Below are positions 24,001 to 27,000 of a DNA stretch of 46,690 nucleotides, one piece after another. Where the stretch lies: the IMG/VR virus record IMGVR_UViG_2718218402_000006; one strand, 5' to 3'. The stretch is from a virus (Duplodnaviria; Heunggongvirae; Uroviricota; Caudoviricetes). Positions within the stretch are counted from its first letter, which is position 1. Each line of letters opens with the position of its first letter. A program made the position numbers.

Positions 24001-27000
24001 CGGAATACCCGCCGCTCTTCAAATCCCATTCCCAACTCAGAATGTAGTCTGTTGACCGCTTGTTTTATTTCGGTCAGGTTCACCGGTGAAACCGGAGTCC
24101 GGCGCGCCTTACGCAAACACTCTGCTCGTTTCTGTGCCGCCACTTTTCTTTTCTGGTCATCACTTAGCTGTACCATCACTTTTGCCCATCGTTCAGCTGC
24201 TCTCCGGTACAGTCCTTTTTTCTCCAGACATTCTGCCACGTGATCATGTAGCATAAGTGACCTCCGATTATCTACAGACTGCCATCCTGAATTTACCTTC
24301 CCTTAATGAAATAACAATAAAAAACAAACCACGCAAAAACAATAAAACAACACACAAAAAAAACTAAATAATAAACAAAAATAATCACCTTATTTTATTA
24401 TTTTTTGAGGGAGCAATTACTGAACAAAAAACGCTGACTATATACTCAAAACCAAACAACTATTCTGCCAATCAGGTATCATGGCAACACACGGAATTAC
24501 CGTGTTTTTGCCTTCTCTGCCCATACAATACGGGCATATACTTCATTCTCTATTGTAATATTTCTATCCATGTGCCCCACTCCATTTACCTGTAAATAAT
24601 ATTCAAAATATTTATCACAGAAATCGTTTTTGGCCATGAACTGAGCACACTATAAAGACCGGAACTGACTCTTTGTTAAATTACCTTAACGTTACCAGTA
24701 ACACCTTCATAACAAAACATCACGGTATACACTGGGTACGGATATATTCCTGTGCTCCTTCCAGTTGCTTCTGCATTGCCATCAGCCGTTCTCTGAGGAT
24801 GAAATAATCCCGTTCAGCGGTGTCTGCCAGTCGGGGGCCGGTTGCATTATCCACGCCGGAGGTGCCGGTGGCTTCACGCACGGTACCGGAGCAGGTGGCG
24901 TTGATCCGCAGGCGCTTACGACCAGCGGCAACATCAGCACGCAGAGTTTCATTTTCAGCTCTCGCATCGGCTAATTCCCTCGAGTATCTGGCATCAAGTG
25001 CAGCGACATCACGCTGGCGTACCTGCATATCAGTAATTGTCACGTTCGCCAGCTTCAGCTCACTGGCTTTTTTATCGCGTTGCGCTTTGTAGGTAATGGC
25101 GTTATCGCGGTAATGATTCAGCCCCAGACTAAGCACACCACAGGCTACCAGCAGGACAATAATCACCACACACAGAACACGGTTCATATCCCCCTCACCC
25201 CACCAGCCATGACAAAGTTAAGACGCGCCAGGCAGTGGAAAAGCAAATAGCAACCAGCATTAGTGAAAATGAAATGCCGACGATTACACAGAGGATCTTC
25301 GCCAGCGTTATGAGCTTGTCTGACATGCTTAATCCTCTTCACGATTTCAACGCAATGACCAGTTTTGCCAGCCCATACAGCATCGGAGACACAGCAATAC
25401 CGACCGCCACCCACTTAATAGCAAAAGCCAGCGCTCTGCTGACGTCATCAGTTACAGGCGCTTTCAGTTCAAGGCCGTTTTTCATAGTCAATCTCAACAG
25501 AATTCGTTTATACTTTCCCATGTTCTCCCTTGCCTTACTCAAGGTCAGAAACACAAAACCCCGTTTGCGGCCAACAAACGGGGTTTTACTTTTATTCACT
25601 TAGTTTTTGCCAGTTCGCAGGATTTCGTGTTATCCGCCAGTGTGAGCAAACCGCATTTTTCAGCAAAATATTCTGCTTATCTGTCAATTCCCCAGCACGC
25701 CAGCGCGCTCTCCTGGTCACGCCGTGAAACCTGACCGTAGCAGTTGTTTGAGCGAATACGGCAGTCTCTGCCACCGTCCTTAATCCACCAGCGAATCGCC
25801 TCACACGCTCTCCTGCGATCACCTGCATTAATTCGTCTGTAAAACGTCGACGGGAAACACTTACCGGGACCAATGTTGTACGGACAGAATGACGCGATCC
25901 CCGCTTTCTGGGGTTCGGTCAGCGGTACTTTAATATTGCGCTCCACCCACTCCAGCGCCTTATCACGTTCAATGGCGTTAACCTGGTCGCATTTTTCCTT
26001 CGACAACTTCATGCCCGGAACGACAGGTTTACCATCCACCAGGATGGCACCGCGGCAGATGGTCCAGATACCCGCACCATCACGGTATGCCGTGGTGTGG
26101 TTACCTTCTTTTTCGTCAAGAAACTGGTCGAGGATTTCAGGCGCAGACGCCCCTGCACCAATCAGCGCCAGAACGGCAGCCGACAGGCCGTATCTGATTT
26201 TTGCGTTCATGGATATTTATCAGGGTTTATCGATTTCAAATCCCTGGATATGTTAAGTCTTCAGGCCAGCGGTGGAGTCTTCAGAGAACCAGTAATTATT
26301 CCCGGTAGTTTTCCTCTGTAGGTTATCAACACATCCTGCGCCTCTAAAATTACGGGGCGCTTTTCCGGCAACGGACCATCCCCTTCACATAACCCGGCAG
26401 CAACATCCATGAAAAACTGCTTCGCCTGCTTTTTCGCCTCAGCTTCGTAAAACTCCAGCGTGGCACCTTCAGTACGGTCAAGACTAATCGCCACATCTGG
26501 CAACAACAGTGACGGATACCCACCAATTTCCAGTGCCACAGTAACAGTAATCTTATCCGGGTAATTATTTATCCCTTTAACACCCAGTTCGTATTTTTTC
26601 TTCATCGCTTTACTCCCCCCGCGCCGCCTTACGACGGTCCTCTCTGATTTTGAAATACAGGTTAGTCAGATACGTCAGCAGGCCAAACAGCAGACTCCCC
26701 AGCACACCGATTGCCACCCACTGGGACGGAGAGACTTTGTCCAGCAGCTGCAGTAACCAGTATCCCGTCCCCACCGCTGACGTGGTGTATGACACACCTG
26801 TTGTGATTTTTTCCATCTGATGTATGTCTCCGTCACCGCCGACAGAAAATGAAAGTAAAGGAAAACAAAAAGCCGCCAGTGTCGCCCACTGACGGCCAAC
26901 GCCGGGAGCCGTGATTATGGCATTCAGGCTCTGCTAAAAATGCCAGATAACATTCCGGCTCCCCCCCCTGATTCAGGTTATAAATGACACAATATCTTGA

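Follow-up and report, generated by a model that had tools for sequence, protein, structure and literature searches.

Two small membrane-protein genes in a mosaic cargo slot between the endolysin and Rz genes of Sp14-type prophages, one of them in a mobile hairpin-plus-gene cassette

In phage P2, LysA is encoded between the endolysin and spanin genes, and the releasin of phage Mu (gp25, DUF2730) is a membrane-tethered cytoplasmic protein which acts on the signal-anchor-release (SAR) endolysin. The geometry of hok/sok is that of a short cis-antisense RNA whose promoter lies within the first codons of the gene that it controls and whose terminator lies upstream, and in the immI region of P22 the sar RNA (an antisense RNA of ~70 nt, convergent with the sense transcript) is directed against the ribosome-binding site (RBS) region of ant. 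In the Sakai prophage Sp5, hokW-sokW facilitates lysis and phage release (PMC8621323). The present work concerns a stretch of 46,690 nucleotides from a virus of the Caudoviricetes (IMG/VR virus record IMGVR_UViG_2718218402_000006), which is called here, at its full length, the window. Its lysis cassette contains one open reading frame (ORF) of 114 aa between the holin and the endolysin, as well as two short hydrophobic ones, of 60 and 43 aa (ORF60 and ORF43), between the endolysin and the spanin Rz. We find that in this lambdoid prophage of the Sp14 type the junction between endolysin and Rz serves as a mosaic cargo slot for small membrane genes or Ant, that ORF60 and ORF43 are genuine, selected genes of small inner-membrane proteins, and that the ORF60 family, which is not specific to lysis cassettes, moves between phages as a compact cassette formed by a bidirectional terminator hairpin, a mini-hairpin sequestering the Shine-Dalgarno (SD) sequence, and the gene itself.

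The elements discussed below are the following, with window positions used throughout and all lysis-cassette genes on the minus strand:

26816..26610, minus strand: holin, class II (phage 21 S-type), 68 aa; PF04971, E 8.8e-33; Sakai ECs2743
26605..26261, minus strand: 114-aa ORF; PF07041 (DUF1327/YdfR); Sakai ECs2742
26210..25677, minus strand: SAR-type endolysin (lysozyme), 177 aa; PF00959, E 2.6e-24; Sakai ECs2741
25548..25597, both strands: bidirectional intrinsic-terminator hairpin (stem 25555-25587), from folding and T-runs
25522..25547, minus strand: conserved ORF60 leader with mini-hairpin, from RNAfold and leader conservation
25521..25339, minus strand: ORF60; Sakai ECs2740 (ECs_2740), WP_001303555.1
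25326..25195, minus strand: ORF43; Sakai ECs_5740, WP_001280929.1
25187..24720, minus strand: Rz i-spanin; PF03245, E 6.1e-49
24967..24782, minus strand: Rz1 o-spanin, embedded in Rz; PF06085, E 1.7e-21
25485..25514, plus strand: predicted sigma-70-like antisense promoter, from motif and comparison
25521..25597, plus strand: predicted cis-antisense RNA of ~75 nt

The window DNA is 100% identical to O157:H7 chromosomes and matches the Sp14-type prophage of O157:H7 Sakai, where Rz and Rz1 are ECs2738 and ECs2739 and pchC lies downstream. An earlier reading of this DNA (hereafter the original prediction) had placed the three ORFs at coordinates which are all correct, both against the ORFs of the window and against the RefSeq annotation. 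The protein families and the SAR-like N-terminal segment identify a phage 21-type pinholin/SAR-endolysin/Rz-Rz1 cassette: the endolysin N-terminus is rich in Gly and Ala and weakly hydrophobic (Kyte-Doolittle value of the hydrophobic window 1.67), and the catalytic triad E35-D44-T50 is readable in the sequence. The dual-start motif of the holin is absent, with ATA and not ATG at codon -3 (26816-26825), so that only the 68-aa product is possible; most related loci have ATG there. The 114-aa ORF starts 4 nt past the holin stop, the ATG of ORF43 lies 12 nt past the stop of ORF60, and that of Rz 7 nt past the stop of ORF43. For comparison, 167 related loci were fetched and their alleles extracted; given that two fetch sets overlap in contigs, the counts below are of loci and not of independent phages. 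The 489-nt spacer between endolysin and Rz is covered to at least 80% in 990 of 5426 complete E. coli genomes (~18%), and no second copy of any small-ORF family was found elsewhere in the window.

That the two short hydrophobic ORFs with good RBSs are real, as had been proposed, is borne out by coding constraint, SD sequences, the apparent translational coupling to Rz, transmembrane (TM) segments, conservation and RefSeq calls. ORF60 is preceded by the SD AAGGGAG (3 nt 5′ of the ATG) and ORF43 by AGAGGA (6 nt 5′ of the ATG), and the RefSeq annotation pipeline PGAP calls both at exactly the coordinates that they have in the window. Among 14 alleles of ORF60, the variable sites are distributed 3/1/20 over the three codon positions, and the ratio of nonsynonymous to synonymous polymorphism (pN/pS) is 0.10, versus 1.18 and 2.73 in the other frames; this frame-specific codon pattern, together with the low pN/pS, argues for a genuine selected gene. 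The corresponding values for 20 alleles of ORF43 are 17/11/24 and 0.39, versus 0.85 and 1.58. Comparison with relatives, including synteny, showed both small ORFs to be conserved, with full-length homologues down to 54-65% identity; relatives of ORF60 are present in Salmonella and Escherichia marmotae, and ORF43 is still 43 aa long in homologues of 60% identity. At the level of families, ORF60 matches phrog_1115 (E 6.6e-42) and phrog_4493 (E 3.6e-29) and ORF43 matches phrog_4906 (E 7.3e-24), all three of unknown function.

Hydropathy gives one TM segment in each small protein, in agreement with the original prediction. ORF60 combines a basic N-terminal stretch of 30 aa with a weakly hydrophobic C-terminal TM segment (38-58), and its AlphaFold2 (AF2) model (predicted local distance difference test, pLDDT, 75) contains a single long helix (23-59, at ~88-90), from which it is predicted to be a tail-anchored small inner-membrane protein. 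It has no charged hydrophilic C-terminal tail of the kind found in holins and ends in ...ALKS. ORF43 is a single-pass protein with a strongly hydrophobic TM segment (11-29), ending in ...LSWLVG. This second gene directly precedes Rz in arrangements with ORF60 or with Ant, including the Ant-holding slots of Shiga-toxin (Stx) phages, and its stop codon lies 7 nt (102 loci), 2 nt (41 loci) or -4 nt (8 loci) from the ATG of Rz, with these three gaps accounting for 149 of 165 fetched loci, a spacing which suggests that the two are translationally coupled. We also considered two alternative readings, and both were dropped: that ORF43 might be a duplicated N-terminus of Rz, as its similarity to the Rz anchor, the SAR domain or the holin is not significant (P 0.15-0.86), and that ORF60 might be an 86-aa protein extended to a GTG (25599..25339) and running through the hairpin, as an SD precedes the ATG but not the GTG and the 60-aa form is the one called by PGAP.

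The ORF60 family is narrow, with 22 matches in an exhaustive hidden Markov model (HMM) search of 1.84 billion cluster representatives, and a scan of species-representative genomes found no relatives. Its members are ~50-65 aa long and share the consensus M-x-x-Y-[KR]-R-x4-RL-x-MK-x-G-x-E-x-DAPV...A-x-AFAI[KR], followed by the TM helix and a short end (KS, LK or RWW). Neither small ORF matches a Pfam or NCBIfam family at E up to 1; a search with 19 family members of ORF60 gave no holin or releasin family at E up to 10 (only weak matches to DUF1218 and DUF4345); and none of the three ORFs matches the PADLOC defence HMMs. The literature holds nothing under the protein accessions or locus tags of the small ORFs, and a comparative paper on Stx phages does not mention them.

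The mosaic nature of the endolysin-Rz junction is apparent from the forms in which it occurs. The window carries ORF60 followed by ORF43, while many Stx1 and Stx2 phages, as well as Sakai Sp10, carry Ant followed by an ORF43 homologue whose start overlaps the ant stop. A third form consists of a 31-aa TM peptide, ORF43, an out-of-frame C-terminal fragment of ORF60 and a 28-aa peptide paralogous to the ORF60 TM segment (P 2e-4 or below); in H-19B the slot holds an unannotated TM peptide of ~45 aa ending in IRWW, 2 nt 5′ of Rz, and one distant locus has an ORF60 relative together with a DNA methylase. In K-12 Qin there is no endolysin-Rz spacer at all. The first ~154 nt past the endolysin, with the hairpin, are common to all of these slot forms. 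Across loci, DUF1327, the holin dual start, ORF60, ORF43 and Ant combine independently of one another, and the slot content shows no correlation with the holin dual start or with the presence of DUF1327.

Several individual slots deserve a separate description. The H-19B peptide (VFDFSKLIREIRVMAEKLSTWKFILIWLVFVIMASGYFIGQIRWW; AF034975, 1659-1796) is encoded between R and Rz behind the same hairpin, with relatives in two further loci (L004 and L178), and a 37-aa hypothetical ORF, ECs_1094, is annotated at this position in Sakai Sp4. In L004 (1771-2141) and L005, from O111:H2 and other E. coli, the C-terminal half of ORF60 lies out of frame behind the ORF43 homologue, and PGAP assigns a non-standard start to the fragment. 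In some genomes, indels fuse the ORF43 homologue and the ORF60 fragment into a two-TM protein of 80-83 aa (P0125, P0129, P0133 and P0137), which may be a pseudogene, sequencing noise or a frameshift product. Finally, the protein P0161, from a 554-nt contig of the European Nucleotide Archive, joins the N-terminus and first transmembrane domain (TMD1) of an S21-type holin to the C-terminus of ORF60 at a shared QWVA(V)G; this fusion would remove the holin C-terminus, the endolysin and the spacer, and, being seen on a single contig only, it may be an assembly artefact.

The hairpin which the original prediction had placed just after the endolysin, and had called a bidirectional terminator, is real, but it is more than a post-endolysin terminator. 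Its stem (25555-25587, 13-15 bp: AAAACCCCGTTTG / CAAACGGGGTTTT) is flanked by T-runs (U-runs in RNA) on both strands, and its folding energy of -21.6 kcal/mol (z -3.2) was matched by none of 200 shuffles. Downstream of it, in the leader, CCTTG (25544-25540) pairs with CAAGG (25532-25528) in a mini-hairpin which, according to RNAfold, overlaps the SD AAGGGAG (25531-25525); only 3 of the 33 leader positions vary among 38 slot variants. In all 12 diverged loci of the family that were examined, a hairpin with an A-run, a GC-stem and a T-run ends 24-45 nt 5′ of the start codon, followed in most of them by the SD-burying mini-hairpin (CCTTG...CAAGG), and the RNAalifold consensus stem has 13 pairs, 7 of which show compensatory double changes. 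The distance from hairpin to ATG and the leader are kept across contexts in which the upstream gene differs.

These contexts, as judged from Pfam matches of the neighbours, are late genes (lysis, tail and head) of diverse siphophage-type prophages. Besides the lysis cassette, ORF60-family genes lie between a tail tube protein and a tail assembly chaperone, between a JAB plus NlpC/P60 tail protein (tail K) and the lambda tail protein I, between a capsid-like protein and DUF4054, after a tail-fibre gene, between an SAR endolysin and a methylase, and between a peptidoglycan-binding-domain protein (where only PF01471 matched, possibly an endolysin) and a lipoprotein. The hairpin accompanies the gene in every context, which argues that it belongs to the cassette of the small gene, whose upstream boundary it forms. 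A sense terminator between, for instance, tail tube and chaperone genes would be tolerable only in an antiterminated late operon, in agreement with the places where these genes lie. The 33 nt that separate the hairpin from the start codon of ORF60 yielded no sense promoter. In two Salmonella enterica loci (L169, 3805-4168, and L170), tandem ORF60-family paralogues of 64 and 55 aa follow a SASA/DUF6645 esterase gene and precede DUF1353 and chromosomal genes, with no holin, endolysin or Rz; this arrangement looks like a degraded prophage end that retained the small genes.

Opposite to codons 3-13 of ORF60 we found a -35 element (TAGTCA), an 18-nt spacer and a -10 element (TATACT; 25485-25514), with a predicted start at the ORF60 ATG. 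We hold the odds to be roughly even that a cis-antisense RNA of ~75 nt is made from here, covering the start codon, SD and leader of ORF60 and ending at the bidirectional terminator. Such an RNA would stop at the hairpin, followed by ACUUUUAUU, and its predicted fold is that of a small RNA (sRNA), at -24.6 kcal/mol (z -4.1). A single promoter-like match is uninformative alone, there being 4 in the region versus 3.8 expected; comparison within the family is more telling. The enterobacterial members have the motif at an unchanged position, and two of these have TATAAT. A -10-like hexamer on the opposite strand is present in 12 of 12 members, versus 4.6 +/- 1.5 expected when synonymous codons are randomised (none of 2000 randomisations reached 12), and a full antisense promoter in 6 of 12, versus 2.1 +/- 1.2 by the same procedure (P 0.0025). 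In five of the six enterobacterial members with a full promoter the predicted transcription start site (TSS) falls at the ATG, and in the sixth (L176) it falls 3 nt upstream. Moreover, the subfamily with K-L-Y-R in place of K-Y-K-R rebuilds the -10 element from other codons (TTG/TTA TAC, giving TACAAT/TATAAT).

Synonymous identity in the family is 68% over codons 1-16 and 38% over codons 17-36, and the codons that make up the hexamers (TAT, CGA and TTG, of which CGA and TTG are rare) are invariant, whereas those lying in the promoter spacer are free to change. On the 5′ side of the stem stands a conserved A-tract that would give a U-tail in the antisense direction only, and, since it is needed solely for termination in that direction, we count it in favour of the antisense RNA. 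Rfam has no family at the ORF60 locus (the best match, to the rimP leader at E 0.64, is below threshold), and no TSS data for the predicted RNA were found. Two sRNAs of the Sakai EcOnc series were also considered: EcOnc11 was rejected as an sRNA of the slot, as it sits downstream of Rz in Sp10, and an EcOnc23-like cassette was looked for in the tail region (~10,100) to no avail, the window not being collinear with Sakai there.

Taking these elements together, our best explanation, to which as a whole we give about an even chance, is that the cargo slot holds a silenced late membrane-effector cassette. In the lysogen, the hairpin would stop stray sense transcription that is not antiterminated, and the masking of the SD by the mini-hairpin, together with the antisense RNA, would block translation. 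Upon induction, a Q-modified polymerase would read through the hairpin and the sense mRNA would outrun the antisense RNA; ORF60 and ORF43 would then be made along with Rz/Rz1 and enter the inner membrane, with ORF60 seated as a tail anchor, its N-terminus inside. Three such layers of silencing would point to a protein whose expression harms the host, and the most likely role of ORF60, for which HokW offers a precedent, would be that of a late membrane effector aiding or tuning lysis.

A number of observations weigh against this explanation. Nothing physically links the small proteins to the holin, the endolysin or the spanin, and ORF60 has no similarity to a known type I toxin, holin or defence family in Pfam, NCBIfam or PADLOC. 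ORF43 is less constrained, with ATA for ATG in 47 loci (where an upstream ATG start is used) and a frameshifted C-terminus in 8. Concerning the antisense RNA, the promoter statistics treat related sequences as independent, which makes their P values optimistic; the protein motifs KYK and RLTMK themselves favour A/T-rich antisense hexamers; and in the six members that lack a full promoter, of which five are high-GC metagenomic loci and one is the Salmonella locus L169, the -35 element is weak or missing. No peak in the EcOnc list of sRNAs detected by crosslinking to Hfq and analysis of cDNA (Hfq-CRAC; Tree 2014) falls in the endolysin-Rz slot of Sp14 or Sp4. Transcript or translation data for the small ORFs were not found either, and neither ORF appears, by coordinate or locus tag, in the supplements of the novel-gene study of Sakai by ribosome profiling (Ribo-seq), although that study used uninduced cultures and its silence is weak evidence.

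Alternatively, the small proteins may be dedicated lysis-timing regulators, similar to antiholins or releasins, with the TM segment of ORF60 pairing with the second transmembrane domain (TMD2) of the pinholin and ORF43 pairing with the Rz anchor. The small ORFs do lie inside the cassette, apparently coupled translationally to Rz; the window carries a holin allele without the dual-start antiholin codon; P2 LysA and the Mu releasin are precedents; the ORF60 TM segment (KWVAVGIAVSPMLYGL) resembles TMD2 (0.002; P 0.0004-0.0014 by composition-preserving shuffle); and the natural holin-ORF60 chimera P0161 is joined exactly at QWVA(V)G. Nevertheless, the WVAxG motif is lost across the wider ORF60 family, which makes the TMD2 likeness a weak lead only, the similarity of ORF43 to the Rz TMD is not significant (P 0.15), and neither PF04971 nor any other holin or releasin family of Pfam is matched at E up to 10. 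Which modules are present does not depend on the holin type, the cassettes of K-12 Qin and of phage PhiR12_3 exist without one or another of them, and ORF60-family members are found among tail and head genes and in the Salmonella remnant that has no holin, endolysin or Rz. A dedicated regulator of the pinholin or SAR endolysin is weakened by the cargo-slot nature of the junction, by the family outside lysis cassettes and by the independent assortment, and we regard it as unlikely; a direct action of ORF60 on the pinholin is possible, if weakly supported. A further reading, to which we give little credence, is a module formed by a tail-anchored toxin and its ~75-nt antisense RNA, with antitermination as the switch and mimicry of TMD2. 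Such a module would be viable only inside antiterminated late operons, antitermination itself would fire the toxin at the end of the lytic cycle, and in the lysis-cassette copy of the window the toxin helix would mimic TMD2 of the pinholin, co-assemble with it and tune its triggering.

A quite different view takes the small proteins for lysogenic-conversion morons, expressed from the prophage and acting in superinfection exclusion or host fitness (as with HK97 gp15, lambda Bor/Lom or SieB). This would suit a cargo hot spot which also bears Ant or a DNA methylase, small TM genes which are mosaic, diversified and accompanied by paralogues, their GC content of 0.44-0.49 versus 0.52-0.58 in the flanking genes, the tandem paralogues kept at the degraded Salmonella prophage end, and the presence of the module in ~18% of complete E. 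coli genomes. Against it stand a strong terminator only 33 nt from the ATG, no sense-strand promoter having been found, and an SD sequestered in a hairpin; the terminator is upstream, the opposite of a canonical moron, PADLOC gives no match, and the supplements of the uninduced Sakai Ribo-seq study do not contain the small ORFs. We consider it improbable. Finally, only the hairpin may matter, as a terminator or mRNA stabiliser of the S-R segment, with the antisense signal a by-product of codons and ORF43, perhaps also ORF60, functionless scars of recombination. Recombination joints, frameshifted fragments and fused variants abound in the slot, ORF43 shows loss of the start codon and alternative C-terminal frames, the same hairpin also stands 5′ of unrelated small ORFs in H-19B and L004, and promoter-like matches are at chance level (4 vs 3.8 expected). 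We judge this very improbable: ORF60 is under strong in-frame purifying selection (pN/pS 0.10, with third codon positions accounting for 20 of the 24 variable sites), the pN/pS of ORF43 (0.39) is specific to its frame and its length of 43 aa is held down to 60% identity, the hairpin-ATG spacing and the leader are conserved though the upstream gene differs, and the synonymous conservation is centred on the hexamers and not evenly spread.

The third gene of the original prediction, the 114-aa ORF, had been presented as unassigned and as interrupting the cassette between holin and endolysin. It is there, and like the small ORFs it belongs to a PHROG family of unknown function (phrog_406, E 7e-64), but it is also a clear member of DUF1327/YdfR, matching PF07041 over its full length (residues 1-112, 152.6 bits against a cutoff of 25, E 3.5e-45). 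Its position between a class II holin and a lysozyme is that of ydfR in the essQ-ydfR-rrrQ genes of K-12 Qin. Rather than an interruption unique to this cassette, it is an ordinary, common YdfR/DUF1327 module, facultative in that it is missing from PhiR12_3 and other loci; the family appears to be confined to Escherichia and Shigella. The K-12 protein (b1555) has 103 aa, versus 114 aa in the window, and relatives of 176-183 aa bear an additional C-terminal extension. The protein is predicted to be soluble, with an N-terminal beta-beta-beta-alpha domain (residues 1-72), in an AF2 model of moderate quality (pLDDT 61). Its C-terminal 40 aa are highly conserved (most strongly at ~80-112) yet unmodelled; in the family alignment, conservation peaks in the C-terminal EKRPxILEAQxVxITYxGKLPGxITGSLK. 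No usable fold match was obtained (best E 0.23 with Foldseek against PDB and 0.56 in a sequence profile search of PDB). For YdfR of K-12, a 2026 paper (PMC13232886) reports binding to RNase E, in its catalytic N-terminal half (Rne 1-598), by two-hybrid and co-purification experiments, and co-purification with RNA. This binding, shown for the K-12 protein only, would be the sole functional lead for the 114-aa ORF, and it hints at RNA-level control within the same cassette.

Other features of the window can be noted around the cassette. In the ~300-nt gap (26817-27117) between a SASA esterase gene (27118..28968) and the holin the minus strand has two hairpins resembling terminators (26897..26871 and 26959..26942). 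According to a 2026 preprint, the interval from sialate esterase to holin-lysozyme operon is precisely where the prophage sRNAs PasA/PasC lie, and the region may hold a PasA/PasC-like sRNA. Downstream of Rz, a PerC-family regulator (23940-24254, minus strand) occupies the same position as pchC in Sakai Sp14, and its flanks (24200-24500) are very AT-rich (GC 0.29-0.33), as is typical of morons. Above the gathering score, Rfam gives sok (RF01794, 34847-34996), STnc100 (RF02076, 29106-29278) and DicF (RF00039, 42105-42156); by the first of these, the prophage already has a canonical hok/sok module elsewhere.

None of the three ORFs is new in itself, as all were already in databases as hypothetical proteins or PHROG families. 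What is added here is the analysis of the slot, the link between ORF43 and Rz across Stx phages, and the finding that ORF60 forms, together with its hairpin, a mobile cassette which probably also encodes an antisense RNA. The small genes sit in lysis cassettes of Shiga-toxin and related prophages, in which toxin release depends on lysis, and any effect of ORF60 or ORF43 on the time of lysis or on the integrity of the membrane would carry over to Stx release and phage yield. More generally, the cassette illustrates concretely the spread of small membrane genes from one late operon to another; it also suggests a route by which they may be silenced in lysogens (an upstream terminator, a masked RBS and a probable antisense RNA) and offers a reason for the presence of a "terminator" in the middle of an operon.

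Among known systems, P2 LysA, the S21 71 antiholin, the Mu releasin and P1 LydB/LydC/LydD are similar in being small membrane proteins encoded in or beside lysis cassettes. They differ in that ORF60 and ORF43 have no Pfam match, in that the ORF60 family occurs also outside lysis cassettes, and in that ORF60 has no charged C-terminal tail; compared with the releasin in particular, the TMD of ORF60 is C-terminal, and not N-terminal with a cytoplasmic domain, and DUF2730 is not matched. With the morons of late operons (lambda bor/lom, HK97 gp15) the small genes share their insertion among late genes, small membrane products, mosaicism and a slightly deviating composition, and they are extra genes in the sense that they lie between conserved neighbours and are absent or replaced in close relatives. 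A canonical moron (for the concept, see PMC4104026) is, however, preceded by a promoter of its own, followed by a terminator and active in the lysogen, whereas ORF60 has its terminator upstream and no visible sense promoter, and ORF43 runs straight into Rz.

Closer in layout is hok/sok, which is likewise a prophage-borne gene of a small hydrophobic membrane protein with its translation start under a cis-antisense RNA (predicted in our case). ORF60 (60 aa) and ORF43 (43 aa) have the size and hydrophobicity of type I toxins (membrane proteins under ~60 aa), with no homology to type I toxin families in Pfam or to the corresponding RNA families in Rfam at the locus (Hok, Ldr, Ibs, TisB, ShoB, Zor and others). 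ORF60 differs from Hok in having no sequence similarity to it or to any Pfam toxin family, in its TM segment being C-terminal (a tail anchor) and not N-terminal, and in having neither a sense promoter of its own nor a long folded 5′ or 3′ untranslated region, its expression depending, as proposed, on antiterminated late transcription. The other close parallel is sar/ant of P22. There the target is an antirepressor and here it would be a small membrane protein, and the likeness drawn is one of geometry; nevertheless, in both a short antisense RNA (predicted here) lies over the RBS, and Stx phages carry Ant in the very slot that holds ORF60 in the window.

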